Source: Bacteroides uniformis | Lineage (GTDB): Bacteria > Bacillota > Clostridia > Oscillospirales > Acutalibacteraceae | Reading direction: 5' to 3' | Length of the DNA stretch: 64,000 nt | Assembly (NCBI GenBank): GCA_963611165.1 | Contig: CAVDQG010000003.1 | Span: 17,827 to 81,826 of the forward strand | In this document: positions 1-43,902 of the stretch, in pieces | Position numbering within the stretch: position 1 is the stretch's first letter | How the letters are laid out: each line of letters starts with the position of its first letter | Position numbers and translations under genes: made by a program | Notes under the pieces: generated by a model | Seen by the model: the letters and a program-made list of their open reading frames with translations, nothing else | What the model was told of the DNA's origin: nothing | Database searches by the model: none

Positions 1-1
1 C

Positions 2-133
2 AGATTTGACACTGACGATGTTGTTGTGGCAAGCGGCAGCTGTTCGGGTAACTGCTCGGATGTATGCGAAGGCGTCTGCGAAAGGGTTTGCGAGCCTAAG
101 TGCATGCCAAACTGCAATCCATACGTACTGTAA
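2..133 (+). CDS. 5'-truncated small Cys-rich precursor-like peptide, class A (...RFDTDDVVVASGSCSGNCSDVCEGVCERVCEPKCMPNCNPYVL*)
   Basis: My own frame-2 translation runs open from the window edge to TAA at 131-133. It shares the RFDT(D/E)DVVVAS motif with the next gene. It has seven Cys at exact i,i+4 spacing. Confidence 0.55.
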   Translation, partial: RFDTDDVVVASGSCSGNCSDVCEGVCERVCEPKCMPNCNPYVL

Positions 134-152
134 TGTTGAGGGGTGAAGGTAA

Positions 153-314
153 ATGAAAAAGTTAGTAAAACCCAATATGGAGATAGTCAGATTTGACACA
201 GAAGATGTTGTAGTGGCAAGTGACGGATGCTATGGCTATTGCAAATCTGTTTGTCCGTCAGAATGTCACTCTGTTTGTGATTTAAAGTGCAATTCAGTAA
301 CAACAGAAGGCTGA
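153..314 (+). CDS. 53-aa Cys-rich precursor-like peptide, class A (MKKLVKPNMEIVRFDTEDVVVASDGCYGYCKSVCPSECHSVCDLKCNSVTTEG)
   Basis: ATG at 153 follows a purine-rich SD (gaggggtgaagg); stop TGA at 312-314. It is below the ORF-track length cutoff. It is a paralogue of the truncated upstream peptide and has six Cys at i,i+4 spacing. Confidence 0.6.
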   Translation: MKKLVKPNMEIVRFDTEDVVVASDGCYGYCKSVCPSECHSVCDLKCNSVTTEG

Positions 315-427
315 TTGAATCAATAAATTGAAAATTTAATAAAATCAGTTTTGTAAAGCAATTTTAGGTTTATTTTTTACAGAAGCGAGAGATTGAAAAA
401 GCAAAAGCCGAAAGTGAGGATAAACGA

Positions 428-574
428 ATGAAAAAGGTTTACAAAACACCCGTGGTCGATAAGGTTAATTTCGACTACAAGAATCAGGTAGTTGCATCAG
501 GATGCACAAGACAGTGGGGATATCAGGGCGATAATTGCCACGACCATTCCACAGTATACGACAACCTTTCTTGA
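428..574 (+). CDS. 48-aa precursor-like peptide, class B (MKKVYKTPVVDKVNFDYKNQVVASG|CTRQWGYQGDNCHDHSTVYDNLS)
   Basis: ATG at 428 with SD agtgagga 7 nt upstream; TGA at 572-574. The 25-aa N-terminus is conserved with the three following genes and the C-terminus is variable. Confidence 0.65.
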   Translation: MKKVYKTPVVDKVNFDYKNQVVASGCTRQWGYQGDNCHDHSTVYDNLS

Positions 575-591
575 TTTGGGGGTGTATCGAT

Positions 592-741
592 ATGAAAAAA
601 GTCTATGAAACACCTCTGGTAGAAAAGGTTGATTTTGATTACAAAAATCAGGTCGTAGCTTCGGGCGGTGGCTGTTATTACAGAAATATCGGAGACGAGT
701 CTTGTGTAAGCGGCGGCGAGTTTATTCTGCAGAACTCCTGA
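592..741 (+). CDS. 49-aa precursor-like peptide, class B (MKKVYETPLVEKVDFDYKNQVVASG|GGCYYRNIGDESCVSGGEFILQNS)
   Basis: This is the internal Met of track ORF 535..741. Start at 592 is chosen by homology to its paralogues and by the G-rich SD (ttggggg) upstream. Confidence 0.65.
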   Translation: MKKVYETPLVEKVDFDYKNQVVASGGGCYYRNIGDESCVSGGEFILQNS

Positions 742-784
742 TTTGTAAGCAAAAACAAAATTCGAAAGAAGTGAGGACAAACAT

Positions 785-943
785 ATGAAAAAAATCTATG
801 AAACACCTGCAGTTGAAAAAGTTAATTTTGACTACAAGAATCAGGTAGTTGCTTCGGGTACTTGCGGTACCGTTTATGGTTGGAGAACACCTACAACGGA
901 GACAACATGCCATGAACAGCATTATAGTGAGAATCAGGTTTGA
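785..943 (+). CDS. 52-aa precursor-like peptide, class B (MKKIYETPAVEKVNFDYKNQVVASG|TCGTVYGWRTPTTETTCHEQHYSENQV)
   Basis: ATG at 785 with SD agtgagga; TGA at 941-943. The leader is conserved and the core is variable with two Cys. Confidence 0.65.
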   Translation: MKKIYETPAVEKVNFDYKNQVVASGTCGTVYGWRTPTTETTCHEQHYSENQV

Positions 944-958
944 TTGGAGGAAGAAAAA

Positions 959-1120
959 ATGAGAAAGCTGTATACTACACCTTCAGTTGAGAAGATAGAG
1001 TTTGATTATAATAATCAGGTAGTTGCGTCAGGTTGTAGCTATGTTTATAACAATTACGACCCGGCTTCAGGAGGAAGCTGTGTTGTAGATCCAGTACACT
1101 CTCGAACATACAAAGTTTAA
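959..1120 (+). CDS. 53-aa precursor-like peptide, class B (MRKLYTTPSVEKIEFDYNNQVVASG|CSYVYNNYDPASGGSCVVDPVHSRTYKV)
   Basis: ATG at 959 with SD ttggaggaag; TAA at 1118-1120. The leader is conserved and the core is variable with two Cys. Confidence 0.65.
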   Translation: MRKLYTTPSVEKIEFDYNNQVVASGCSYVYNNYDPASGGSCVVDPVHSRTYKV

Positions 1121-1136
1121 GCAACGATAATTAAAA

Positions 1137-1166
1137 GGCAGAGGCCTGTTTGGCTCTGCCTTTTTT
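1137..1166 (+). terminator. Rho-independent terminator/attenuator after the peptide gene array
   Basis: Hairpin ggcagaggcc-tgtt-tggctctgcc followed by TTTTTT, located between the last peptide gene and the kinase-like gene. Confidence 0.6.
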
Positions 1167-1208
1167 CGGTAATTGATGTAAAAAAGAAAAACAACACAAA
1201 AGATAGAG

Positions 1209-2336
1209 ATGAAATATTTACTTCCGGGCGTAATTCTTGATTCAGAATTAAAATTGGAGGAATTTTCGGATTTTGAAGCCGAGAATCCCTCTTCTTTTGC
1301 TGTCCCAGAGATAAGCTTAAAGGTGACGGAAGAAGAGCCCACCCCCGAGGTGAAAAGAGCTTACGCTCACGCTCAGATAAACATAAGCGAAATCGAGGGC
1401 GGCTGGCTTTTTTCGGACACGACTGGCGGAGCTAAGCTTCTCGTTTCTGAGGACTACCGAATGCTCACCGCATGGGTGAGGGGCGAAAGAAACATGGAGG
1501 CGCTAAAGACCAATCTTCTTCGCACCGCACTCGAGTGCGCAAGCGTGGCAAACGGCATAGTCAGCTTTCACTCGGCTTGCGTTGAGGCGGACGGCTTTGC
1601 CGTGGCTTTCACGGGCAAGAGCGGAACGGGAAAATCCACCCGTGCAAACGCATGGATAGAGAATCTCGGCTACAGCTTTGTCAGCGGCGACAGACCCGCT
1701 ATTTTCAGCGAAAACGGCGTTCTTACCGTCAGCGGAGTTCCGTGGGACGGCAAGGAGAAGATTTTCAGAAATGTGCGTCTTCCCCTCAAGGCTATTTTGG
1801 ACGTTCACAGAAGCGACAACGAGTTTTTTGAATTAAGAGAGCTCACGCAAAAACAGAAATTCAGAGTGCTCATGCAGCAGGCATTCATTCCGATGTGGGA
1901 CACAAAGACCGCAAGCGGAGTGATAGGCATGCTCCATGTGCTTTCAAGAAAAGCACCGATGCTTCGCCTTTTCTGCGGCCCCGACGGGGAATCCGCAAAG
2001 AAGACGCACGATGTTTTATTTAATCATCCCGAACTAATAAAGGAGGCAAGACCCGAGATGAAGGTTAAGGAAGGATTCACTCTCCGCAATGTTATCGGAG
2101 AGAACATTTTGATGCCGACAGGCGACAACATAGGCAAATTTGACGGAACTGTTATTTTCAACGAAGTTTCTGCATTCGTATGGGAGAAGATGCAGACTCC
2201 TGTTTCAAGAGAGGATCTTCTCGGAGCGATTTTAGGTGAATTTGAGGTTGATAAGGAGACGGCAGAGAAGGATCTCGACGCTCTGCTCGAGAAGCTCTCA
2301 AGTCTCGGACTTATCGACGAAAACGCAACAGACTGA
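1209..2336 (+). CDS. HPr-kinase-like P-loop protein fused to a C-terminal PqqD/RRE-like peptide-binding domain (putative peptide kinase)
   Basis: 375-aa ORF. Its central part (FHSACVEADGFAVAFTGKSGTGKSTRANAW...FVSGDRP) resembles the HprK C-terminal/HprK-related kinase P-loop. The last ~90 aa (FTLRNVIGENILMP...FNEVSAFVWEKMQTPVSREDLLGAILGEFEVDKETAEKDLDALLEKLSSLGLID) match the PqqD-family pattern. Both calls rest on motif recognition only. Confidence 0.6.
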   Translation: MKYLLPGVILDSELKLEEFSDFEAENPSSFAVPEISLKVTEEEPTPEVKRAYAHAQINISEIEGGWLFSDTTGGAKLLVSEDYRMLTAWVRGERNMEALKTNLLRTALECASVANGIVSFHSACVEADGFAVAFTGKSGTGKSTRANAWIENLGYSFVSGDRPAIFSENGVLTVSGVPWDGKEKIFRNVRLPLKAILDVHRSDNEFFELRELTQKQKFRVLMQQAFIPMWDTKTASGVIGMLHVLSRKAPMLRLFCGPDGESAKKTHDVLFNHPELIKEARPEMKVKEGFTLRNVIGENILMPTGDNIGKFDGTVIFNEVSAFVWEKMQTPVSREDLLGAILGEFEVDKETAEKDLDALLEKLSSLGLIDENATD

Positions 2337-2355
2337 TATTTAATAAAGGATAAAC

Positions 2356-4104
2356 ATGCTTACATTACTTAAAGCAAGTTATAAGGAAGATAAGCGTGGC
2401 TTTATCGAGATTTTCATACTGAACATAATCTCGTCTTTAATGGGCGGCATAAGCATAGTCGTGCTCTTGCCGATGCTCGAGCTTTTGGAGGATGTTCCCT
2501 CTTCGCTTGAGGGCAGTGTGGTGGAGGCGGCTGTCAGCACCATGTCACCCTTGATGAGAGTTATTGTTTTGGCTGGCGGCTATTTGTTTTTATTGACGGT
2601 TAAGGCTCTCCTTAGCCGTCAAATGTCGCTAAGGCAAAATGCTTACCTTTGCCGCTACACGCAAAGGCAGAGACAAACTCTCTATGAGCTTATGGAGAAA
2701 TCAAGCTGGCAGTACCTCGCAAAGCAGAAGAGAACGGATCTCATCAATCTTTTCACCTCGCTTTGCGGTCAGGTGACGAGCGGAATTTCCTCTTCAATCG
2801 GTATGCTCTCGAATATCGTCATAGCTATAGTTCAGCTTATAATTGCACTTTGTATGAGCGTGCCCATCACGCTGTTTGTTTGCGTGGCGGGTGCTGTTTT
2901 GATGGCGGTTTTCTGGCCGCTAAAAAAGAAAAGCAAGGCTTTCGGCAAGGAAATGATTGATGTCAGCCGAAATTTCTACTCGGAGCTTCTGAATCAGCTC
3001 GGCAGCGTCAAGGAGATAAGAGCCTATGATGTCGAGAGTGAACATGAGGAGAGGTTCACCAAGATAAACGAGAAGTTTACCACCATGCAGACCGAGTATG
3101 CCAAAGTGAGCTCGCTTCCGGGACTTGTCTATAACATTGCGGCGGCACTTGTTATCGCACTTCTCTTTGTGTTTTCCACAATGGGCATTCACATTGAGAC
3201 GGCAAGACTTTTGGTTCTCGTTCTCGTTTTCTCAAGATTGTGGCCGATTTTCTCAGGCTTTCAGGGAACGGTGCAGAGCATTCAGACGAATCTCCCGGCG
3301 CTCGAAGACCTCGAAAAAGCCATGAGGGAAATGCGTGAGGCAAGAGAAGAACCCGACGACGGCAGAACTCTCGACTTCAAGGAGAATGTCACATTTGACG
3401 GCGTTCATTTCTCGTATTTCGATGACGGCAAGGATGTTCTCGGCAACATGAGCTTCGAGATAAAATTCGGCGAAATAGTCGCTCTTTGCGGCAGAAGCGG
3501 AGCAGGCAAGAGCACCGTGGCTAATCTTCTCATGGGATTTTTGAATCCCACATCGGGAAGCATAAGCGTGGATGGAAATGTTCTCACGGGCAAGGACTTG
3601 CACGCTTGGCGAAGAGTTATCGGCTATGTTCCGCAGGATCCGCTTGTATTAAACGCATCCGTGCGAGAGAATCTCTCACGTTTCCACCCGAACGTCACCG
3701 AGGAAGAGATGATAGACGCACTCAAGCGTGCTCAGGCTTGGGGATTTGTCGAAAAGCTTAATGACGGACTTGATACGCTTCTCGGCGATCAGGGAGTCAG
3801 ACTTTCGGGCGGCGAAAGACAGAGAATAATTCTCGCAAGGGTTCTTCTGGGAAAACCGAGGTTCATAATTCTTGACGAGGCGACCAGCGCACTTGATTAT
3901 GACAGCGAAATTTCCATAAGAAATGTGCTGTACGAGCTAAAAGGTGAGGTTAGTGTATTGATTATTGCCCACCGACTTGCTACAATAAGGATTGCGGACA
4001 AAGCGCTTGTTCTTGAGAACGGTTCAATCAGCGAGACGGGCACGATAGCCGAGCTTATCAAAAAGCCGGGCGGCTATCTCAACTGTATGGCTGATCTCGG
4101 ATGA
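2356..4104 (+). CDS. ABC exporter, fused permease/ATPase, with no N-terminal C39 peptidase domain
   Basis: 582 aa. It has N-terminal TM helices, Walker A GRSGAGKST, signature LSGGERQR, Walker B IILDEATSALD and H-loop IAHRL. Confidence 0.85.
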   Translation: MLTLLKASYKEDKRGFIEIFILNIISSLMGGISIVVLLPMLELLEDVPSSLEGSVVEAAVSTMSPLMRVIVLAGGYLFLLTVKALLSRQMSLRQNAYLCRYTQRQRQTLYELMEKSSWQYLAKQKRTDLINLFTSLCGQVTSGISSSIGMLSNIVIAIVQLIIALCMSVPITLFVCVAGAVLMAVFWPLKKKSKAFGKEMIDVSRNFYSELLNQLGSVKEIRAYDVESEHEERFTKINEKFTTMQTEYAKVSSLPGLVYNIAAALVIALLFVFSTMGIHIETARLLVLVLVFSRLWPIFSGFQGTVQSIQTNLPALEDLEKAMREMREAREEPDDGRTLDFKENVTFDGVHFSYFDDGKDVLGNMSFEIKFGEIVALCGRSGAGKSTVANLLMGFLNPTSGSISVDGNVLTGKDLHAWRRVIGYVPQDPLVLNASVRENLSRFHPNVTEEEMIDALKRAQAWGFVEKLNDGLDTLLGDQGVRLSGGERQRIILARVLLGKPRFIILDEATSALDYDSEISIRNVLYELKGEVSVLIIAHRLATIRIADKALVLENGSISETGTIAELIKKPGGYLNCMADLG

Positions 4105-4156: not shown

Positions 4157-6130
4157 ATGGCAAAAACTAATGAAAGACGCCGAATTTTGCACTGGCAGAT
4201 GGTCAGTGCGATTCTGGTGGCTTACGATCTGGTTGCGGTGGTTTTTTCTTACTTTATCGCACTTTTGGTACGATTTGACTGCAGGTTCTCGCTCATACCG
4301 AGAGATTATCTCGAAGGCTACTATAAAAGTATAATCGTCTATGCGATTATCGTGGCTGTGGTGTTCCAGTGCTTCAGGCTCTATCAATCGATTTGGCGGT
4401 TTGCGAGCTTCGTGGAGCTGTGCCGACTTCTGCTGGCGACGGTGATAACCTCGGTTATCTATGTTTTGTTCGAGACGATATGCATTCAGAGGATGCCTGT
4501 TTCGTACTTCATTTTCGGAATCATTGTTCAGCTTACACTCACCGTTGGCGTGAGATTTTCTTACCGCTTCATTCTTCTTCTTCGTGAGAGAAATTATTTC
4601 GGCACGGACAAGACTAAGCCCGAGGAATCGAAAGTTATGCTTATCGGTGCGGGACAGGCGGGTCAGGCAATTATCCGTGACGTAAGAAGAAGCACTTCAC
4701 TCAATGACAAAATCGTCTGCATCATTGACGACAACTCAAACAAATGGAGCCGCTTTATCGACGGTATTCCCGTTGTCGGCGGCAGAGAGAGTATAGTCGA
4801 GAACTGCAAGAAATTCGGCATTGATAAAATCTACTATGCTATTCCGAGTGCGAACATGAAGACCGAGAAGGAAATTCTCGAGATATGCAGTGAAACGGGA
4901 TGCAAGATGAAGAAGCTTCCCGGTATGTTCCAGCTTATCAGCGATCAGGTCACCATTGCCGACATGAAGGACGTTCAGATTGAAGACCTTCTCGGCAGAG
5001 AACCGATTAAGGTTGATATGAACGAGATTTTCTCTTATATTCGTGACAAGGTTATACTCGTCACGGGCGGCGGCGGATCTATCGGCTCTGAACTTTGCAG
5101 ACAGATTGCCGCACATGAGCCGAAAATGCTCATCATATTCGATATTTACGAGAACAATGCCTATTCAATTCAGCTTGAACTCAAGAGAAAATATCCTAAC
5201 TTAAAGCTTGAGACGATAATCGGCTCGGTTCGTGACGGAAAAAAGCTTCTTGACCTCATGGAGAAATATCATCCGCAGATTATCTATCATGCGGCTGCTC
5301 ACAAGCATGTTCCGCTTATGGAGGATTCTCCGTGCGAGTCAATCAAGAATAACGTAATGGGCACATACAACACTGCCCTTTGTGCGGCTTTGACGGGTTG
5401 CGAGAGATTTGTCCTTATAAGCACCGACAAGGCGGTAAATCCCACCAACATCATGGGCGCAAGCAAGCGTCTTTGCGAAATGGTTGTTCAGTCCTTTGAC
5501 GCACTTGTCAAGACCGGAAAAGCCGACAAACTTCTTCCTACGTTCTTAAGCTGGGCACACACCGAGGATAACGAAGGTCTTGCCGAGAGGCTAAAGAGCG
5601 CAAAGGTAGAGTATGTTGCCGTTAGATTTGGTAATGTTCTTGGCAGTAACGGCTCCGTCATTCCGCTTTTCAAAAGGCAGATTGAGCTTGGCGGCCCCGT
5701 AACGGTCACTCATCCGAACATCATCCGCTACTTTATGACTATCCCCGAAGCGGTTTCACTCGTTCTTCAGGCGGGAACATATGCAAACGGCGGAGAAATT
5801 TTTGTTCTCGATATGGGCGAGCCCGTCAAGATAGATACCCTTGCGAGAAACCTCATCAGACTTTCGGGTCACGAGCCTGACGGCGATATTAAAATCGTTT
5901 ACACGGGACTGCGACCGGGCGAAAAGCTTTTCGAGGAGAAGCTTATGGCTGAAGAGGGCTTGAAGAAAACCAAGAACAAACTTATTCACATCGGTTGTCC
6001 GATTCCTTTTGATACCGATGAGTTTGTCGTACAGTTGGATTCTTTAAGCCGTGCGGCTTACGATAATGCCGAGAATATAAGAGAGCTTGTCGAGGAAATT
6101 GTCACGACCTACAAGCCCGAGAATATTTAG
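4157..6130 (+). CDS. Membrane-anchored polysaccharide biosynthesis protein, CapD/PglF/WbpM-like NDP-sugar 4,6-dehydratase
   Basis: 657 aa. It has N-terminal TM helices, two Rossmann motifs (IGAGQAGQ, VTGGGGSIGSEL) and SDR-type motifs (STDKAV...PTNIMGASKR). Confidence 0.8.
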   Translation: MAKTNERRRILHWQMVSAILVAYDLVAVVFSYFIALLVRFDCRFSLIPRDYLEGYYKSIIVYAIIVAVVFQCFRLYQSIWRFASFVELCRLLLATVITSVIYVLFETICIQRMPVSYFIFGIIVQLTLTVGVRFSYRFILLLRERNYFGTDKTKPEESKVMLIGAGQAGQAIIRDVRRSTSLNDKIVCIIDDNSNKWSRFIDGIPVVGGRESIVENCKKFGIDKIYYAIPSANMKTEKEILEICSETGCKMKKLPGMFQLISDQVTIADMKDVQIEDLLGREPIKVDMNEIFSYIRDKVILVTGGGGSIGSELCRQIAAHEPKMLIIFDIYENNAYSIQLELKRKYPNLKLETIIGSVRDGKKLLDLMEKYHPQIIYHAAAHKHVPLMEDSPCESIKNNVMGTYNTALCAALTGCERFVLISTDKAVNPTNIMGASKRLCEMVVQSFDALVKTGKADKLLPTFLSWAHTEDNEGLAERLKSAKVEYVAVRFGNVLGSNGSVIPLFKRQIELGGPVTVTHPNIIRYFMTIPEAVSLVLQAGTYANGGEIFVLDMGEPVKIDTLARNLIRLSGHEPDGDIKIVYTGLRPGEKLFEEKLMAEEGLKKTKNKLIHIGCPIPFDTDEFVVQLDSLSRAAYDNAENIRELVEEIVTTYKPENI

Positions 6131-8384: not shown

Positions 8385-9905
8385 TTGCAGTTTTTCAGCC
8401 AGCTCAAAGAGAAAACGGGCGAATCCATGGCGGCGGTTTTGCCGATAACCGTCATTGTTTTCGTGCTGTCCGTCACACTTGCTCCCCTTGACCCCGGCAC
8501 GCTGATACTGTTCCTTTTCGGTGCGGTTCTGCTTGTTGCGGGAATGGGCTTTTTTACTATGGGGGTCGATATGGCAATGACGCCGCTCGGTGAGGGCGTC
8601 GGTTCGGTTCTCAGTAAAAAGAAAAAATTCATTATTCCGGCAGTGGCATTTTTTCTGCTCGGAATGCTTGCCACGGTTGCGGAGCCTGATTTACAGGTGC
8701 TCGCAAATCAGGTTTCGGCAATCAACACTCAGGTGCTCATCTGGACGGTTGCGATAGGCGTGGGATTTTTCCTTGTTATCGCAACAATCAGAATAAGAAA
8801 GGGGATTCCGCTTCGTCGGCTTTTGCTCATTTTCTATTTCATCGTGTTCGCAATGGCGTTCATAGCACCGAACAACTTCGTTCCCGTTTCATTTGATTCG
8901 GGCGGAGTTACCACGGGTCCGATAACGGTTCCGTTCATTATGGCTTTGGGTCTCGGTATAGCCTCGAGCCGCAGTGACAAAAACAGCGCAAGCGACAGCT
9001 TCGGTCTTGTTTCGCTTTGCTCGATAGGCCCGATTCTCTCCGTGCTTATTTTAAGCATAGTTTATAAGCCGCAGACGGTTGATGTCAGCCTTGCCGAGGT
9101 ACCCGAGGTATCCACAAGCGCACAGGTGGCGCATTACTTTATCCGTGCGTTTCCGAGTTATTTTGAGGAGGTTGCGATAGCAATTTTACCGCTTGTGGCG
9201 GTATTTGTGATTTTTCAGCTCATCACGAAAAATTATTCGGGAAATGAGCTTATCAAAATCGCAATGGGATTTATCTATACCTACATCGGACTTGTCATGT
9301 TCCTTTGCGGAGTTAACGTCGGCTTCATGCCCGCCGGTCAGACTATCGGTGCGGCTATCGCTTCGAGCTCGCAGAGATGGCTTCTTATTCCTATCGGTAT
9401 GCTCATCGGCTTCTTCATCGTAAAAGCCGAGCCGGCGGTTGCCGTTTTGCAGAAGCAGGTTGAGGAGGTTTCCAACGGTGCTATTTCCGCCCGTGCGATG
9501 GGTGTTGCGCTTTCTGTCGGCGTCTGTGTTTCTGTCGGACTTGCCATGGTGCGTATGCTTACGGGCATGAATATTTTCTTCCTTCTCATTCCCGGTTATG
9601 CGATTGCACTTGGCTTAAGCTTCTTTGTGCCGAACATCTTCACCGGTATCGCATTCGACTCCGGCGGAGTTGCCAGCGGCCCGATGACGGCTACATTCCT
9701 TTTGCCGTTCGCTCAGGGCGCATGCCAGGCAATAGGCGGAAACATGATGACTGACGCATTCGGAATTGTCGCAATGATTGCCATGACGCCGCTTGTCACC
9801 ATTCAGATTATGGGACTTTCAAGCATCGTCCGTCACAATATTCAGATAAGAAAGCTTCATTTCCACATGGAAAAGGTCGAGGATACAGTCCTCTTCTACG
9901 ATTAA
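8385..9905 (+). CDS. DUF1538-family integral membrane protein (internally duplicated)
   Basis: 506 aa. TTG start lies 6-7 nt after SD aaggagag. The protein is polytopic and has an internal repeat: FDSGGVTTGPITVPF versus FDSGGVASGPMTATF. Confidence 0.65.
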   Translation: MQFFSQLKEKTGESMAAVLPITVIVFVLSVTLAPLDPGTLILFLFGAVLLVAGMGFFTMGVDMAMTPLGEGVGSVLSKKKKFIIPAVAFFLLGMLATVAEPDLQVLANQVSAINTQVLIWTVAIGVGFFLVIATIRIRKGIPLRRLLLIFYFIVFAMAFIAPNNFVPVSFDSGGVTTGPITVPFIMALGLGIASSRSDKNSASDSFGLVSLCSIGPILSVLILSIVYKPQTVDVSLAEVPEVSTSAQVAHYFIRAFPSYFEEVAIAILPLVAVFVIFQLITKNYSGNELIKIAMGFIYTYIGLVMFLCGVNVGFMPAGQTIGAAIASSSQRWLLIPIGMLIGFFIVKAEPAVAVLQKQVEEVSNGAISARAMGVALSVGVCVSVGLAMVRMLTGMNIFFLLIPGYAIALGLSFFVPNIFTGIAFDSGGVASGPMTATFLLPFAQGACQAIGGNMMTDAFGIVAMIAMTPLVTIQIMGLSSIVRHNIQIRKLHFHMEKVEDTVLFYD

Positions 9906-17688: not shown

Positions 17689-18393
17689 ATGAAAAGATTA
17701 CTTGTTTGCGAGGACGAGCAGAATATCAGAGAATTTGAAGTAATAAATTTGAGAAGAGCAGGCTATGAAGTCATAGAAGCGTCAAACGGAGACGAGGCTC
17801 TCGAGATTTATCACCGTGAAAACGGAAATTTCGACGTTGTGATTCTCGATATCATGATGCCCGGAAGACATGACGGTCTTGCGGTCTGCAAGGAGCTCAG
17901 AAAGCTCAGCGACACCATAGGAATAATTCTCCTTTCGGCTAAAACGCAGGAGATGGATAAGGTCACAGGTCTTATGGTCGGAGCGGACGACTACATCACG
18001 AAGCCGTTTTCGCCCAGTGAACTCACCGCAAGAGTGGATGCCGTAAACCGCAGAGTAGAGCTTGTAAGGGGAGCGACGGCAAATGCCTTTTCAAAGGAAA
18101 TTGTTTCCGGTGACTTCGTGCTCAACCTTATGGACAGAAGCTTTTCCAAAAAGGGCGAAAAGATTGACCTCACGCAGGTTGAATTTCAGATAATCGAATA
18201 TTTCCTCACAAATCCGACTATTCCGCTTTCGAGAACGGATATTCTCACTCATGTCTGGGGCACAAGCTATGCCGGTGACGAGAAAATCGTTGACGTAAAC
18301 ATCAGAAGAATAAGGATGAAGATTGAGGACGACCCGTCTGTTCCGGCCCACATAATCACAGTCTGGGGCCACGGCTACAGATGGGAAGCGTGA
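17689..18393 (+). CDS. OmpR-family response regulator
   Basis: It has a receiver domain (DVVILDIMMPG) and a winged-helix C-terminus (GHGYRWE). ATG 17689 follows SD agggagg. Confidence 0.85.
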   Translation: MKRLLVCEDEQNIREFEVINLRRAGYEVIEASNGDEALEIYHRENGNFDVVILDIMMPGRHDGLAVCKELRKLSDTIGIILLSAKTQEMDKVTGLMVGADDYITKPFSPSELTARVDAVNRRVELVRGATANAFSKEIVSGDFVLNLMDRSFSKKGEKIDLTQVEFQIIEYFLTNPTIPLSRTDILTHVWGTSYAGDEKIVDVNIRRIRMKIEDDPSVPAHIITVWGHGYRWEA

Positions 18394-23444: not shown

Positions 23445-24374
23445 ATGGCAGTAAATAAAAACGGAATTGTCGTTGTCGGTGCGGTTTTTGTGGATATTAA
23501 GGGATTTCCGATTTCACAGTATATTCCCGGCGGAAGAAATGCGGGAAACATTAAGCAGGTTCACGGCGGAGTGTGCAGAAATATTGCCGAGGACATTGCA
23601 AATCTTGAGCTGAGGCCGACTCTTATAAGCCTTGTGGATGACAGCGGAATAGGCACAGACGTTATCTGTAAGCTTCAAAGACACAAGGTGAATACGGAGT
23701 ATATGCGTGCGAAAACGGACGGTATGGGCACTTGGCTTGCTATATTTGACAACGGCGGTGACGTGACCGCGTCTATCTCCAAAAGACCCGACCTTATGCC
23801 GATATGCGACATTCTGGACGAAAAGGGCGATGAGATTTTCTCCGAGTGCGACAGCATCGTTTTTGAAATGGACATAGAAAAAGAAATTGCCAAAAAGCTG
23901 TTTTATTACGCCGAGAAATACAACAAGAAAATTTACTGCCCGGTTTCCAACATAAGCATTGCGTCGGAGAGAAGAGACTTTTTGAGATTGGTGGACTGCT
24001 TTGTCTGCAATGACCACGAGGCAGAAATGCTGTTTTATGATAATTTTGAAGATTTAAGCACAGAGGAAATACTCGAAAAGCTCAGGCAGAATGTAAGAAA
24101 TGCAGATTTAAACAGCATGGTGGTCACATTAGGCGAAAGAGGTGCGGTCTGGGCTGATAAATTCGGGGAAAGCGGATTTTGTCCAGCAAAAAGAGTTGAT
24201 GTGAGAGATACCACGGGTGCTGGAGATTCGTTCTTTGCCGGGGTGGCGTCTGCGCTCACCTACGGAAAGAGCTTAGCTGAGGCTTGCGAGATAGGCTCAC
24301 GTCTTGCCGCTTCGGTTATCACAACAACCGATAACGTTTGTCCGAGATTTCTTCCCGAGGAGCTTGGGCTTTGA
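23445..24374 (+). CDS. PfkB-family carbohydrate/nucleoside kinase (ribokinase/pseudouridine-kinase-like)
   Basis: 309 aa with the DTTGAGDSF anion-hole motif. Confidence 0.7.
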   Translation: MAVNKNGIVVVGAVFVDIKGFPISQYIPGGRNAGNIKQVHGGVCRNIAEDIANLELRPTLISLVDDSGIGTDVICKLQRHKVNTEYMRAKTDGMGTWLAIFDNGGDVTASISKRPDLMPICDILDEKGDEIFSECDSIVFEMDIEKEIAKKLFYYAEKYNKKIYCPVSNISIASERRDFLRLVDCFVCNDHEAEMLFYDNFEDLSTEEILEKLRQNVRNADLNSMVVTLGERGAVWADKFGESGFCPAKRVDVRDTTGAGDSFFAGVASALTYGKSLAEACEIGSRLAASVITTTDNVCPRFLPEELGL

Positions 24375-24519: not shown

Positions 24520-24635
24520 GTTGGTATTGATTGTGACGAGGGTCCACCTGTTCCCATCCCGAACACAGAAGTTAAGCTCGCTCACGTCGACAATACTCGG
24601 CTGGCAACGGCCTGGGACGATAGATTTTTGCCAAC
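24520..24635 (+). rRNA. rrf: 5S ribosomal RNA, copy 1
   Basis: It carries the conserved 5S core CCACCTGTTCCCATCCCGAACACAGAAGTTAAGC and a terminal helix GTTGGTA/TGCCAAC. Length is ~116 nt. Confidence 0.85.
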
Positions 24636-24643
24636 ATATTTCA

Positions 24644-24759
24644 GTTGGTATTGATTGCGACGAGGGTCCACCTGTTCCCATCCCGAACACAGAAGTTAAG
24701 CTCGTTCGCGCCGACGATACTCGGCTGGCAACGGCCCGGGACAATAGGTTTTTGCCAAC
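24644..24759 (+). rRNA. rrf: 5S ribosomal RNA, copy 2
   Basis: Same architecture as copy 1, starting 8 nt after it. It differs from copy 1 by 8 substitutions. Confidence 0.85.
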
Positions 24760-24766
24760 ACTAAAG

Positions 24767-24884: not shown

Positions 24885-26057
24885 TTATCCGCCGATAACC
24901 TCTTCAAAGATTTTGAGGCCTGCGTCTATTTCATCGTAGGAAATATTAAGCGGAGGGAGGAAACGGCATACATCACCCTTTGCGGTTAAGATGAGAAGTC
25001 CTTTCTCGATGCACTTCTCCATGATGGTGTGAGCGTCCATATCGCTCTTTACTTTGATGCCGAGGATAAGACCCTTGCCGCGAGTATAGCTGACATTCTT
25101 CATCTGGGAGAGCTTATCGACGAAGTAATCGCCCTTGCGTCTGACAGATGCGAGGAACTTTTCGTCGGAAACGGTTTTGACAATTTCTACTCCGCCTGCA
25201 CAAACAACGGGGTTGCCGCCGAAGGTTGAGCCGTTATCGCTCGGAACGAAAACATCCTTGTGCTTTTCAGATACCATGCATGCGCCGATCGGAAGTCCGC
25301 CTGCGAGTCCCTTTGCGCTTGTTGCAACGTCGGGGATGATATCGGCACTCTGATAGGAATAGAAGTATCCTGTTCTGCCGACGCCTGTCTGAACTTCGTC
25401 CATAATCATGAGAATGTCTTTATCGTCACAGAGCTTTCTGACAGCCTTGAGGTACTCGGTATCCATGGGGATAACTCCGCCCTCACCTTGAACGCCCTCG
25501 AGCATGACGGCGCAGACATCGTCTGTTATAGCGTCCTCGAGTGCCTTAATGTCGTTTGCTCCGACATAGATGAAGCCCTCGGTGAGCGGTAAAAAGGTCT
25601 TGTGGAACACATCCTGACCTGTTGCGGCAAGTGTGGTAAGAGTTCTGCCGTGGAAAGAGTTTACGAGTGTGATAATCTTATAAGCGCCCTTGGCACTTCC
25701 GACCTTACGTGCAACCTTGATGGCGCACTCGTTTGCTTCAGCACCTGAGTTGCAGAAGAAAACTCTCGACATTCCCGATGCTTTGCAGAGCTTTTCGGCA
25801 AGCTCGGTGCAGTTGTCGTTTATGTAATAGTTGCAGACATGCTGAACCTTGGAAAGCTGGTTTGTGACAGCCTGAACCCAGTTATCGGGGCAGTAGCCGA
25901 GAACATTAACACCGATGCCCGCTGTGAAATCTATGTATTTTTTGCCGTCGTAATCTTCAGCAATAGCGCCCTTGCCGCTTTTTATGGCAACGGGAGCACG
26001 ACCGTAGGCATGAAGAAGATATTCATCGTCCTGAGCCTTTAAATTATCGTATATCAT
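24885..26057 (-). CDS. argD: Acetylornithine aminotransferase
   Basis: 390-aa class-III PLP aminotransferase in arg operon context. Confidence 0.85.
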   Translation of the reverse strand: MIYDNLKAQDDEYLLHAYGRAPVAIKSGKGAIAEDYDGKKYIDFTAGIGVNVLGYCPDNWVQAVTNQLSKVQHVCNYYINDNCTELAEKLCKASGMSRVFFCNSGAEANECAIKVARKVGSAKGAYKIITLVNSFHGRTLTTLAATGQDVFHKTFLPLTEGFIYVGANDIKALEDAITDDVCAVMLEGVQGEGGVIPMDTEYLKAVRKLCDDKDILMIMDEVQTGVGRTGYFYSYQSADIIPDVATSAKGLAGGLPIGACMVSEKHKDVFVPSDNGSTFGGNPVVCAGGVEIVKTVSDEKFLASVRRKGDYFVDKLSQMKNVSYTRGKGLILGIKVKSDMDAHTIMEKCIEKGLLILTAKGDVCRFLPPLNISYDEIDAGLKIFEEVIGG

Positions 26058-41481: not shown

Positions 41482-41745
41482 AGAAATTAACAGACAAAAT
41501 TAAATGCAATGATCGGAAAGAGTAGCTTTTCAAAAGCACAACAGAAAGCGTGGGCCGTCGGCTGAGAGCCCGTGCGGTGAAAGGGAAAGTGAAGTGCGTC
41601 CGTGAGCAGACGGAGGGAAATAAAGTATCTCCGTACGTGAGGTTGAGAGAATCAATCAGCTGCGTTAAGGCAAAAAAGTTATAAAACGAAGTGGAACCGC
41701 GAATTTTCGCCTTCGATGCCTTTTTGGTATCGGAGGCTTTTTTGT
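41482..41745 (+). promoter_or_regulatory. T-box leader, cysteine-specific
   Basis: It has AGAGA/GNGA-like stem I elements and a candidate specifier UGC at 41595-41597. The T-box sequence is aagtggaaccgcg (41688-41702). The terminator is gccttcgat/atcggaggc plus T6 (41709-41743). It sits upstream of cysE-cysS. Confidence 0.75.
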
Positions 41746-41764: not shown

Positions 41765-42433
41765 ATGTTTGATAAGCTGAAAGCGGAGCTTGATTTGGTC
41801 ATGGAGAGAGACCCTGCGGCGAGATCAAGATTTGAGGTCTATTTTCTGTATTCGGGCTTCAAGGCGATAAGGTCGTACCGCAAGGCGCACTGGTTTCAGA
41901 CCCACGGGATGAAGTTTATCGCAAGGTTCATTTCCCAGAGGTCACGCCATAAGACGGGAATAGAAATTCACCCCGGCGCTACGATAGGAAAGAATTTATT
42001 TATCGACCACGGCATGGGAGTTGTCATCGGAGAGACCACGGAGATAGGCGATAACTGCACGCTTTATCAGGGAGTTACCTTAGGCGGAACGGGTAAGGAT
42101 CAGGGCAAGCGTCACCCCACTCTCGGAAACAACGTTCTTGTCGGCTCGGGAGCAAAGGTTCTCGGCCCGTTCAAGGTGGGAGATAACGCAAGAATTGCGG
42201 CAGGCGCAGTGGTTCTGAGCGAGGTTCCCGCCAACGCAACGGCGGTCGGCGTTCCTGCAAGGATAGTAAGACTCAACGGCGAGAGAATCAATTCCGATTT
42301 AGACCAGATTCATGTATCGGATCCCGTATCTCAGGAGCTTTGCCGACTTCAGCTTGAGCTTGATTCCGCTTGGAAGGTAATTAACGAATTAAGCCGCAAG
42401 GTGAACCGTGAGGAAGATACCGTTTCTGAATAA
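41765..42433 (+). CDS. cysE: Serine O-acetyltransferase
   Basis: 222 aa with hexapeptide repeats (GIEIHPGATIG...IGETTEIGDNC). Confidence 0.85.
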   Translation: MFDKLKAELDLVMERDPAARSRFEVYFLYSGFKAIRSYRKAHWFQTHGMKFIARFISQRSRHKTGIEIHPGATIGKNLFIDHGMGVVIGETTEIGDNCTLYQGVTLGGTGKDQGKRHPTLGNNVLVGSGAKVLGPFKVGDNARIAAGAVVLSEVPANATAVGVPARIVRLNGERINSDLDQIHVSDPVSQELCRLQLELDSAWKVINELSRKVNREEDTVSE

Positions 42434-42486: not shown

Positions 42487-43902
42487 ATGAAGCTTTATAA
42501 CACACTTACAAGAACAAGAGATGAGTTTGTCCCCCACGAGGAGGGCAAGGTTAAAATGTACACATGCGGCCCTACCGTTTATCATTTTGCCCATATCGGT
42601 AACCTGAGAACCTACATCATGGAGGATGTCCTCGAGAAGTTTCTGCGTTTTCAGGGTTATGATGTAACAAGAGCCATGAACATCACCGATGTCGGCCACC
42701 TTTCCAGCGATGCCGATACGGGTGAGGACAAGATGCTCAAGGGCGCAAGAAGAGAGCACAAGTCGGTTCTCGAGATTGCAAAGTTCTATACGGACGCTTT
42801 CTTTGCGGACTGCAAGAAACTCAATATCAAGTATCCTGACATTGTTTCTCCCGCAACTCAGAATATCCCCGAGTATATCACAATGATAACAAAGCTTCTC
42901 GATGAGGGATATGCTTATCAGGCAGGCGGAAATGTTTACTTCGATACTTCAAAGCTTAAGAATTACTATGTTTTCGGAAATGTTGACGAGAACGACCTCG
43001 CAGTAGGCGTTCGTGACAGCGTTGAGGAGGACAGCAACAAGAAGAACAAGGCGGACTTCGTTCTCTGGTTCACTAAGTCGAAATTTGACGATCAGGAGCT
43101 CAAGTGGGATTCCCCGTGGGGCTATGGCTATCCGGGCTGGCACATCGAGTGCTCATGCATTTCCATTAAGTATCTCGGAGAGTACCTTGACATTCACTGC
43201 GGCGGAATCGACAATGCTTTCCCGCATCACACAAACGAAATTGCTCAGTCGGAGGCTTATCTCGGACATCCGTGGTGCAAAAACTGGTTCCATGTTCTTC
43301 ACCTTAATGACGAGACAGGCAAGATGAGTAAGTCAAAGGGTGATTTCCTTACGGTTTCTCTTCTCGAAGAAAAGGGATATGACCCGATTGCTTACAGATT
43401 CTTCTGCTTGCAGTCTCACTACAGAAAGCCGCTTGTTTTCTCTTATCAGAATCTCGACAACGCAGTGACGGCATATGATAAGCTTGTGAAGAAAATTGCG
43501 GCTGTTCCGAACGAGGGCGAGGTAGATATGGCTGTCGCAGACGAGCAGAAGAAAATCTTCATTCAGCTTGTCGGAAACGACCTCACAACATCACTTGGTA
43601 TCACTAAGGTTTATGATGTTCTCAAGCTTGACACGAACGGCGCAACAAAGAGATATATCATCGGAGAATTTGACAAGGTTCTCGGACTCAACCTTTTGAA
43701 TCCGAACAAGAAGCCTGTAAATCACGGTGATGTTACCGCTGAGGAGGCTGCCGAGATTGAGGAGCTCATCGCAAAGAGAACCGAGGCAAGAAAGAACAAG
43801 GACTGGGCGGCGGCTGACGCAATCCGTGACGAGCTTAATGCAAGAGGCGTAACGGTTAAGGATACCGCAAACGGAATCGAGTGGACAGTAAGCAAGAAGT
43901 AA
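42487..43902 (+). CDS. cysS: Cysteine--tRNA ligase
   Basis: 471 aa with HIGN and KMSKS motifs. Confidence 0.95.
   Translation: MKLYNTLTRTRDEFVPHEEGKVKMYTCGPTVYHFAHIGNLRTYIMEDVLEKFLRFQGYDVTRAMNITDVGHLSSDADTGEDKMLKGARREHKSVLEIAKFYTDAFFADCKKLNIKYPDIVSPATQNIPEYITMITKLLDEGYAYQAGGNVYFDTSKLKNYYVFGNVDENDLAVGVRDSVEEDSNKKNKADFVLWFTKSKFDDQELKWDSPWGYGYPGWHIECSCISIKYLGEYLDIHCGGIDNAFPHHTNEIAQSEAYLGHPWCKNWFHVLHLNDETGKMSKSKGDFLTVSLLEEKGYDPIAYRFFCLQSHYRKPLVFSYQNLDNAVTAYDKLVKKIAAVPNEGEVDMAVADEQKKIFIQLVGNDLTTSLGITKVYDVLKLDTNGATKRYIIGEFDKVLGLNLLNPNKKPVNHGDVTAEEAAEIEELIAKRTEARKNKDWAAADAIRDELNARGVTVKDTANGIEWTVSKK

Follow-up and report, generated by a model that had tools for sequence, protein, structure and literature searches.

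A putative composite RiPP gene cluster with an HprK-like/RRE fusion protein in a capsule-type polysaccharide locus of gut Clostridia

A 64-kb stretch of contig CAVDQG010000003.1 (assembly GCA_963611165.1, forward-strand positions 17,827 to 81,826), referred to below as the window, was analyzed for the gene cluster with which it opens. Bases 1-4104 contain, all on the plus strand, six small genes, a hairpin followed by a U-run, a 375-amino-acid (aa) open reading frame (ORF) and a 582-aa ATP-binding cassette (ABC) exporter. This segment is probably the downstream half of a composite gene cluster for peptides made on ribosomes and modified after translation (RiPPs), which would consist of a core and an accessory module inside a capsule-type polysaccharide locus and would act through a kinase, a radical S-adenosylmethionine (rSAM) enzyme, a peptidase and an exporter. 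The proposed core module would comprise a signal peptidase I (SpI)-like Ser/His leader peptidase, an rSAM/SPASM maturase without a RiPP recognition element (RRE), one to eight precursors, a protein in which an HprK-like domain is fused to an RRE (hereafter the fusion protein) and an MsbA-like ABC exporter. This core module is found, conserved, in Clostridia of gut and rumen. Among described systems the nearest is the LPP (linear polyphosphorylated peptide) family of Bacilli (Popov et al., Nat Commun 2026, PMC13381572), and the cluster is best described as an uncharacterised sister of the LPP and paeninodin-type phosphopeptide systems that contains an rSAM enzyme and has its kinase-like domain and RRE fused. 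The parts of the cluster and their pairing each have precedent. No publication was found that contains these leader sequences or describes the combination of the fusion protein with an rSAM enzyme, and HPr kinases are not mentioned in the RRE-Finder, structure-based RRE and rSAM-compendium papers.

The initial annotation had described a multi-precursor RiPP locus with six tandem short genes, each with its own Shine-Dalgarno sequence and all sharing the leader block FD-x4-VVAS. This description was confirmed: precursors, PqqD/RRE fusion and exporter were all found where they had been placed, synteny extends to relatives, and the leader block is present in all six peptides of the window. A GGAG/GAGG-like Shine-Dalgarno sequence lies 6-10 nt before the start in all five complete precursor genes, the start of the first gene being off the window. 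The two most upstream peptides (type A, 2-133 and 153-314) have leaders of the form MKKL(V/E)KPNMEIVRFDTxDVVVAS and CxxxC-repeat cores with 6-7 Cys. The peptide at 2..133 (+), identified from its reading frame as the 3' part of a gene that starts beyond the window edge (RFDTDDVVVASGSCSGNCSDVCEGVCERVCEPKCMPNCNPYVL), shows a leader end RFDTDDVVVAS followed by a core with 7 Cys; its full-length homolog has 55 aa and lies at 8737-8904 of a related contig (L004, introduced below), and it gave a weak match to TIGR04117, a family of CXXX-repeat rSAM targets. The second type A precursor (153..314, +; 53 aa) has the leader MKKLVKPNMEIVRFDTEDVVVAS and the core DGCYGYCKSVCPSECHSVCDLKCNSVTTEG and was matched by our leader hidden Markov model (HMM) with E = 3.8e-12 and by TIGR04117 with E = 0.007.

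The other four peptides (type B) have leaders of the form M(K/R)KxYxTPxVxK(V/I)xFDYxNQVVAS; each of their cores contains exactly two Cys, spaced 9-14 residues. They are encoded, all on the plus strand, at 428..574 (48 aa; leader MKKVYKTPVVDKVNFDYKNQVVAS, core GCTRQWGYQGDNCHDHSTVYDNLS; leader HMM E = 8e-15), 592..741 (49 aa; two-Cys core GGGCYYRNIGDESCVSGGEFILQNS; E = 4e-16), 785..943 (52 aa; two-Cys core GTCGTVYGWRTPTTETTCHEQHYSENQV; E = 1.4e-16) and 959..1120 (53 aa; two-Cys core GCSYVYNNYDPASGGSCVVDPVHSRTYKV; E = 1e-15). Two of these starts differ from a mechanical list of ORFs, which begins the second gene at TTG 535 instead of its true start, ATG 592, and gives 944 instead of ATG 959 for the last. 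In the whole 64-kb window the 25-position leader HMM matched only the five complete peptides, and Pfam and NCBIfam scans of the window peptides returned nothing beyond the weak TIGR04117 match of type A. The earlier view that neither precursor family could be placed does not stand, since the type B leader carries the YxxP motif bound by lasso and LPP RREs (PMC13381572) and the type A cores resemble CXXX-repeat rSAM targets.

An intrinsic-terminator-like hairpin with a U tract lies between the precursor array and the enzyme genes (1136..1166, +; AAAAGGCAGAGGCC-UGUUU-GGCUCUGCCUUUUUU), as the initial annotation had proposed. Its folding energy is -23 kcal/mol (z = -4.2), and none of 200 shuffled sequences folded equally well. 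A simple terminator consensus scan overlooked this hairpin because it has a bulge, and it was recovered by folding. The hairpin's probable role is attenuation, with a high precursor:enzyme ratio as the outcome; placed after the precursor array, it would keep precursor mRNA above enzyme mRNA.

The fusion protein (1209..2336, +; 375 aa) was divided, with Pfam PqqD, profile alignments and an AlphaFold2 (AF2) model, into three domains. A beta-rich N-terminal domain (residues 1-115) is followed by a P-loop domain of HprK/PEPCK type (residues 116-275 approximately, bases 1554-2033) and by a PqqD/RRE domain (residues 284-375, bases 2058-2333). Pfam PqqD (PF05402) matched residues 299-369 with 49.6 bits against a cutoff of 23.4, and a profile of 38 fusion homologs matched the lasso B1 proteins TfuB1 (E = 8e-5) and TbiB1 (3e-4) in PDB; all 38 homologs matched lasso PqqD models. 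In the AF2 model (pLDDT 91.7, pTM 0.86) this region shows the canonical arrangement of three strands (283-286, 290-295 and 298-303) followed by three helices (319-327, 334-344 and 349-365). The C-terminal 90 or so residues are a genuine PqqD/RRE domain, as the initial annotation had recognized.

The central region had been said to resemble HPr kinases, and this view held at the level of the superfamily and failed at that of the curated families. All family models scored below cutoff: Hpr_kinase_C (PF07475) 16.8 bits against 33.3, TIGR04355 (HprK-related kinase B) 26.4 against 200, TIGR04352 (HprK-related kinase A) 18.0 against 200, TIGR04249 (ScmC) 16.3 against 125 and TIGR00679 (bona fide HprK) 16 against 240. 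Of the domains that had been named for 1209..2336, PqqD is above its Pfam cutoff, and Hpr_kinase_C and HprK-related kinases A and B are all below theirs. The sub-cutoff matches are consistent among the 38 homologs (TIGR04355 in 36, ScmC in 31 and TIGR04352 in 29), with TIGR00679 matching only 9 of them at E < 0.01. Alignment of the family profile to the HprK structure 1jb1 places H121 on the His of the MH motif, G139-x-G-K-S143 on the P-loop and G160-D161-R162 on D-D-R, with the first Asp replaced by Gly. The residues H121, G139-G141-K142-S143-T144-R145, G160-D161-R162-P163 and P178-W-D-G-K-E183 are invariant in the 38 homologs, whose identity goes down to 45%.

The catalytic domain of HprK falls in the phosphoenolpyruvate carboxykinase (PEPCK) fold class. 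A Foldseek comparison of the whole three-domain model with PDB returned PEP carboxykinases as all of its top 50 matches (E ~1e-6, probability 1.0, query-normalised TM-score 0.28-0.40), and no HprK chain is among these 50 matches. We conclude that the central domain appears to be a P-loop domain of the HprK superfamily whose active site looks intact, and that it lies outside every curated HprK family.

Two further observations concern this domain. Cys124 and Cys256 are invariant and Cys110 is conserved in at least 90% of the homologs, next to the invariant His121, and C110/H121/C124/C256 are a possible metal or redox site; to our knowledge HprK has no such set of Cys. In addition, many homologs (P0014-P0120) carry a precomputed match to PF27840.1, which may be a recently created family for this P-loop domain.

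The initial annotation had also stated that the locus continues past position 1, and the genes found there in relatives bear this out. The exact fusion protein was found only on contigs that break within the repeated peptide array. A 118-kb contig, CAVIHV010000003.1 (L004), encodes a fusion protein 99% identical to it, and the first 12 kb of the window are colinear with L004 8772-20791 at 98.4% DNA identity. On L004 the gene order begins with the capsule genes for Wzz, a Tyr-kinase-type ATPase and CpsB, followed by a 161-aa SpI-like peptidase with GTSMSP and LHRV motifs (L004 4192-4677), whose best match, to TIGR02228 (archaeal-type signal peptidase I), is below cutoff at 26.5 bits. In all 42 homologs of the peptidase Ser35 and His75 are retained (100% conservation), and their spacing equals that of S29 and H68 in LppS (PMC13381572).

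After the peptidase comes a 382-aa rSAM/SPASM enzyme (rSAM382), with best matches to SkfB and AlbA, a CX3CX2C motif at residues 58-65 and a complete, conserved set of SPASM cysteines. It aligns with the AlbA profile from position 105 only and with the SkfB profile from 69 only, indicating that rSAM382 has no N-terminal RRE of its own. There follow P-loop246, a standalone 246-aa paralog of the P-loop domain (29% identity over 146 residues); PqqD87, an 87-aa PqqD protein; and rSAM457, a 457-aa rSAM/SPASM protein located before the precursor genes, with best matches to TIGR04463 ("vs Cys-rich"), CefB and PapB, all sub-cutoff. The rSAM scores lie far under the curated cutoffs (SkfB 73.5 against 300, AlbA 71 against 850, TIGR04463 164 against 525 and PapB 105 against 340).

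Two further relatives with fusion proteins 96% identical to that of the window (L008 and L009) lack P-loop246, PqqD87, rSAM457 and the type A peptides and retain the peptidase, rSAM382, type B peptides, fusion protein and ABC pump. Because this set is missing from L008 and L009, the locus is seen as composite, a core into which an accessory module for type A peptides has been inserted. For the same reason the type A and type B peptides belong to two modules, and those of type A at 2-314 are predicted to be served by the P-loop246/PqqD87/rSAM457 set just upstream of the window.

The wider family was surveyed by a scan with one genome per species, which gave 77 loci, nearly all from metagenome-assembled genomes of gut or rumen Clostridia (Acutalibacteraceae, Oscillospiraceae, Lachnospiraceae and Christensenellales). 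Same-strand neighbours were counted for the 51 fusion genes that have 5 kb or more of sequence upstream and 3 kb or more downstream: an rSAM382 homolog was present in 50, an ABC exporter in 41 and an SpI-like peptidase in 39. In many distant loci the gene that immediately follows the fusion gene encodes an ABC ortholog of about 50% identity. No lasso, lanthipeptide or YcaO enzymes were found among the annotated conserved neighbours, and these classes were ruled out on that ground.

The strict pattern FD-x4-VVA[ST] gave almost no matches in loci under about 60% identity, and the leader HMM was used instead. Of 89 sequence sets (the window and 88 loci), 83 yielded precursors, most misses being loci truncated just before the fusion gene. 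Among the 216 matches in the related loci, 211 share the strand of the fusion gene closest to them, 200 are located upstream of that gene and 183 fall within 1.5 kb. The small genes thus co-occur with the fusion protein in other genomes, mostly just upstream of it. The 173 unique precursors have the consensus M-K-K-x-Y-x-x-P-x-[AV]-E-x-[VI]-x-F-x-Y-x-[DEN]-Q-V-V-A-(x)-S, with Y5 conserved in 95%, P8 in 100%, the Glu in 86% and F15 in 98%. In the 172 precursors with the Y/LxxP...F motif, a Ser is found at Y+19 or Y+20 without exception; the residue after this junction Ser is Gly in 122 of them, and 127 have exactly two Cys, spaced 8-16 residues and followed by a tail of about 11 residues.

The family is large. 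It counts no fewer than 1,266 fusion proteins when clustered at 90%, and scores below 1e-30 are reached by about 220 clusters at 50% identity, among them standalone P-loop and RRE proteins; no curated NCBIfam model fits the fusion family. In a search of 1.84 billion cluster representatives, the alternative forms included, besides standalone P-loop proteins and standalone RREs, fusions in reverse order with the RRE ahead of the P-loop domain (P0239 and P0257). One protein, P0193 (L089 1440-3470), has an HprK-like domain N-terminal to a full rSAM382-like enzyme (43% identity over 371 residues); it comes from a single 5-kb metagenome contig, and the fusion could be an assembly or frameshift artefact.

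The exporter encoded at 2356..4104 (+; 582 aa) is MsbA/HepA-like according to Pfam and NCBIfam, with a transmembrane and a nucleotide-binding domain. Its ABC_membrane domain starts at residue 17, so that the protein opens directly with the membrane domain and has no N-terminal C39 peptidase domain, in agreement with the initial annotation; C39-type export and cleavage were ruled out by this absence. The next gene (4157..6130, +) encodes a CapD-like polysaccharide biosynthesis protein (Polysacc_synt_2 in Pfam), which is not a RiPP enzyme and marks the surrounding capsule locus. The cluster is wedged in a small locus of capsule type, with Wzz, a Tyr-kinase-like ATPase and CpsB upstream (L004 1930-4171) and CapD downstream, where the segment 4157-7988 (+) also encodes a 594-aa polytopic membrane protein without a Pfam match. 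Insertion into polysaccharide loci is repeated in many distant loci of the family, with CpsB in 22 loci, Bac_transf in 21, Wzz/Tyr-kinase in about 15-25 and LytR in 10; UDP-glucose dehydrogenase, GT1, GT2 and GT4 glycosyltransferases and a glycerophosphotransferase are further recurrent neighbours.

LPP clusters (LppA/K/B/S/D/N) contain the archaeal-type SpI-like peptidase LppS, the discrete RRE LppB, the HprK-like kinase LppK, the uncharacterised NTP transferase LppN and an MsbA-like pump, are located in capsule loci and have leaders of the form YxxPxVLxHQxIxFETxxS (PMC13381572). LppK adds several phosphates to core Ser3, and cleavage by LppS after Thr-1 requires LppB, the unphosphorylated precursor being cut poorly (PMC13381572). 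The family described here resembles LPP in its SpI-like peptidase with a Ser/His pair, its lasso-type RRE, its HprK-like P-loop protein, its MsbA-like exporter and its capsule setting. Both have one to several precursors that start with MKKxYxxPxV and end in hypervariable cores (LPP MKKVYEAPQV, second type B peptide of the window MKKVYETPLV), and NTP_transf_5 occurs in about 40% of the fusion-family loci. The likeness of the P-loop domain to LppK holds at superfamily level only.

On the other hand, the kinase-like domain and the RRE form one chain here, whereas the RRE of LPP is discrete; an rSAM/SPASM enzyme is near-universal here (50 of 51 loci, and also the relative of 98.4% identity), whereas LPP has no rSAM enzyme and a linear product; the cores here have a conserved Cys pair, the NTP transferase is not in the window, and the hosts are Clostridia instead of Bacilli. 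The best score of the leader HMM to an LPP precursor was 18 bits, with only MKKxYxxPxV and the Phe common to both. Identity to the LPP proteins is 26-32% for the peptidase and about 21-24% for the RRE. The unstudied SpI clusters 4 and 9 of the PMC13381572 dataset (Dehalobacter, Desulfosporosinus, Anaerocolumna and Ruminococcus) gave 31-39% identity, and 33-39% for the RRE; their discrete RREs start with MKIKEGF, like residues 284-290 of the fusion protein (MKVKEGF).

The paeninodin-type lasso kinases PadeK and ThcoK belong to the HprK superfamily, act on Ser and are accompanied by an RRE of PqqD type whose ligand is a [Y/W]xxP leader (PMC13381572, PMC12639078). The present cluster shares with theirs the pairing of an HprK-superfamily protein with a PqqD-type RRE and a YxxP leader, and differs in the fusion of the two and in the presence of an rSAM enzyme. 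Neither an Asn-synthetase-like lasso cyclase nor a B2 transglutaminase-like protease was found among the genes called in L004 and the window or among the annotatable recurrent neighbours. Nearest in architecture are the NCBIfam-defined systems SynChlorMet (ScmC/D/E/F) and GeoRSP, which also have an HprK-like protein, a PqqD protein and an rSAM/SPASM enzyme, and from which the cluster is set apart by its fused proteins, SpI-like peptidase, ABC pump and other precursor family; scores to their models are far below cutoff. We know of no characterised and no phosphorylated product of either system, and a literature search on SynChlorMet, GeoRSP and HprK-related systems found nothing relevant. Sactipeptide and ranthipeptide systems (SkfB, AlbA, PapB and the families with CXXX-repeat or Cys-rich targets) likewise use rSAM/SPASM maturases on Cys-containing cores, and the type A cores are CxxxC repeats; the differences are that rSAM382 lacks the N-terminal RRE of AlbA and SkfB, that an SpI-like enzyme takes the place of C39 or another usual protease, and that there is a kinase-like partner.

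We propose the following route for the type B peptides and their relatives. The RRE (residues 284-375) would bind the YxxP motif of the leader, as its homology to the lasso B1 and LppB RREs suggests. The HprK-like domain tethered to it would, as LppK and the paeninodin kinases suggest by analogy, phosphorylate the precursor with ATP. Its likeliest target is the invariant Ser where leader meets core, 19-20 residues past the Tyr; the phospho-Ser of LPP stands 18 residues after the Tyr. The same RRE would hand the peptide to the RRE-less rSAM/SPASM enzyme, which would cross-link the core, most likely by thioether bridges from the two Cys. Such a delivery is suggested by the lack of an RRE in rSAM382, by the linkage in 50 of 51 loci and by the single HprK-rSAM fusion P0193. 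The SpI-like peptidase would remove the leader, a role inferred from LppS, and the MsbA-like ABC pump would export the product. What is said here of phosphorylation, of the residue that receives the phosphate and of the radical chemistry is predicted for the cluster from its homologies and context.

Several points weigh against this route. The rSAM enzyme, the peptidase and the second module are predicted for this genome from near-identical relatives and do not occur in the window itself. Among the HprK-type models run (Pfam and TIGRFAM), none reaches its curated cutoff on the P-loop domain; only the second Asp of the HprK ADD motif is retained, the fusion protein having G-D-R, and the domain is likened to LppK and the paeninodin kinases at superfamily level only. 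The junction also differs, being FD[YT]xxQVVA(x)S here and FETxxS in LPP, and HMMER aligns the LPP FET with FD[YT], which places the LPP phospho-Ser opposite Gln20 and not opposite the invariant Ser. This Ser could simply be the -1 residue of a signal-peptidase site (A-x-S, a -3/-1 pair), and the two core Cys could form a disulfide instead. In addition, no NTP_transf_5 homolog was detected by BLAST in the 64-kb window, and none is present in the L004 flanks.

The main rival explanation is that the P-loop domain is not a kinase and serves as an ATP-binding accessory or scaffold of the rSAM enzyme, with a role in substrate loading or release or in the stability of the complex. The peptides would then be thioether-bridged and free of phosphate, similar to sactipeptides or ranthipeptides. 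The occurrence of the P-loop domain with an rSAM enzyme in 50 of 51 loci is in line with this explanation, as are the direct fusion of the two in P0193 and the sub-cutoff scores of all kinase family models; SynChlorMet and GeoRSP, defined in silico, also pair HprK-like, PqqD and rSAM/SPASM proteins with no phosphorylated product known to us. It is opposed by the invariance of the HprK catalytic residues (the P-loop Lys and Ser, His121 and Asp161) and by NTP_transf_5 (PF14907), which goes with the kinases of LPP and paeninodin clusters and adjoins the module in 25 of about 65 family loci. Moreover, LppK and the paeninodin kinases, the characterised RiPP-associated members of the superfamily that are known to us, phosphorylate Ser (PMC13381572). 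On balance we judge a non-kinase accessory rather unlikely.

The polysaccharide setting raises a different alternative, in which the fusion protein phosphorylates or activates a non-peptide capsule substrate and its RRE, in a regulatory role, merely makes capsule synthesis depend on whether the peptide is present. The module does lie within polysaccharide loci in many genomes (CpsB, Bac_transf, Wzz/Tyr-kinase, LytR and glycosyltransferases), but its strongest linkage is to the precursors and the rSAM enzyme and to no particular capsule gene, many loci have no capsule gene within 10 kb, and a peptide substrate is the simplest account of the tethering of RRE and kinase-like domain; we consider a capsule substrate improbable. 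The literal reading of the initial annotation, that one polypeptide both recognizes and modifies the peptides, held for the RRE and for the HprK-like superfamily domain. It would make the fusion protein the sole modifying enzyme of a true LPP-type cluster whose linear phosphopeptides are exported by the ABC pump, and indeed bases 1-4104 hold no other modifying enzyme and the LPP family shows that a primary modification by a kinase only exists (PMC13381572). However, two rSAM/SPASM genes and a peptidase stand immediately upstream in the colinear 98.4%-identical contig, an rSAM gene adjoins the fusion gene in 50 of 51 loci, and the core Cys pair is conserved in number and spacing. A kinase-only pathway is essentially excluded by this genomic context, and we give it very little credence.

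A second, split module was noticed in several Acutalibacteraceae loci (L029 11113-15120; also L030, L031, L037, L039, L056, L072 and L073). Its parts are a PqqD protein (about 90 aa), an rSAM enzyme (about 351 aa), a precursor of 85 aa, a P-loop protein (about 255 aa), an SpI-like peptidase and NTP_transf_5. This precursor (MKKxYxxPESxLxxINLxExIAxxSGG..., with two Cys and the end FNCFRYQF) represents a further family with the same YxxP start. Copies of the cluster that are near-identical or plainly of Clostridia type were also seen in bins labelled Bacteroidaceae, Prevotella, Phocaeicola, Alistipes, Succinivibrio and others (L012-L015, L023, L025, L038, L043, L048 and L059). Since the remaining matches bear Clostridia-type labels, these odd labels most likely reflect mis-binning of contigs in "cleanbin" assemblies rather than horizontal transfer, and they were not used for taxonomy.

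Elsewhere in the window, two tandem 5S rRNA genes (24520-24636 and 24644-24760, +; 72.5 and 81.1 bits in Rfam) have no adjoining 16S or 23S gene; on one side of the pair is a gene of the pfkB kinase family (23445-24374) and on the other, on the minus strand, a gene for a class-III aminotransferase (24885-26057). A T-box leader (41500-41717, +; 94.3 bits against a gathering score of 93) precedes genes for a cysE-like hexapeptide acetyltransferase (41765-42433) and a cysteinyl-tRNA synthetase (42487-43902), and this operon looks like an ordinary Cys-responsive one.

The proposed route of phosphorylation, radical cross-linking, leader removal and export may be extended to a picture of the whole family, which we offer as a possibility about which we remain doubtful. 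In this extension the clusters would form a distinct and very widespread RiPP class of gut and rumen Clostridia, in which phosphorylation or polyphosphorylation of the junction Ser gates both rSAM cross-linking and SpI-type leader removal, and the phosphate would in many members be elaborated by NTP_transf_5 proteins and adjacent glycosyltransferases. The product would be phospho-glycosylated and thioether-bridged, flipped by the MsbA-like pump and tied to the capsule, and would act as a component or regulator of the envelope and not as a bacteriocin.

The cluster joins two RiPP strategies so far studied apart, RRE-guided phosphorylation of Ser, as in paeninodin and LPP, and cross-linking by rSAM/SPASM enzymes. 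If the proposal is true, it would provide a second setting for leader removal by an SpI-like enzyme, shown to date only for LPP. The leader motif and the fusion protein together give a handle for genome mining, and 173 natural core sequences are at hand. The family is large and mostly confined to uncultured gut and rumen Clostridia, and its product would bear on the gating of radical chemistry by phosphorylation, on the HprK-like partners in SynChlorMet and GeoRSP and on the recurrent embedding of such clusters in capsule loci.

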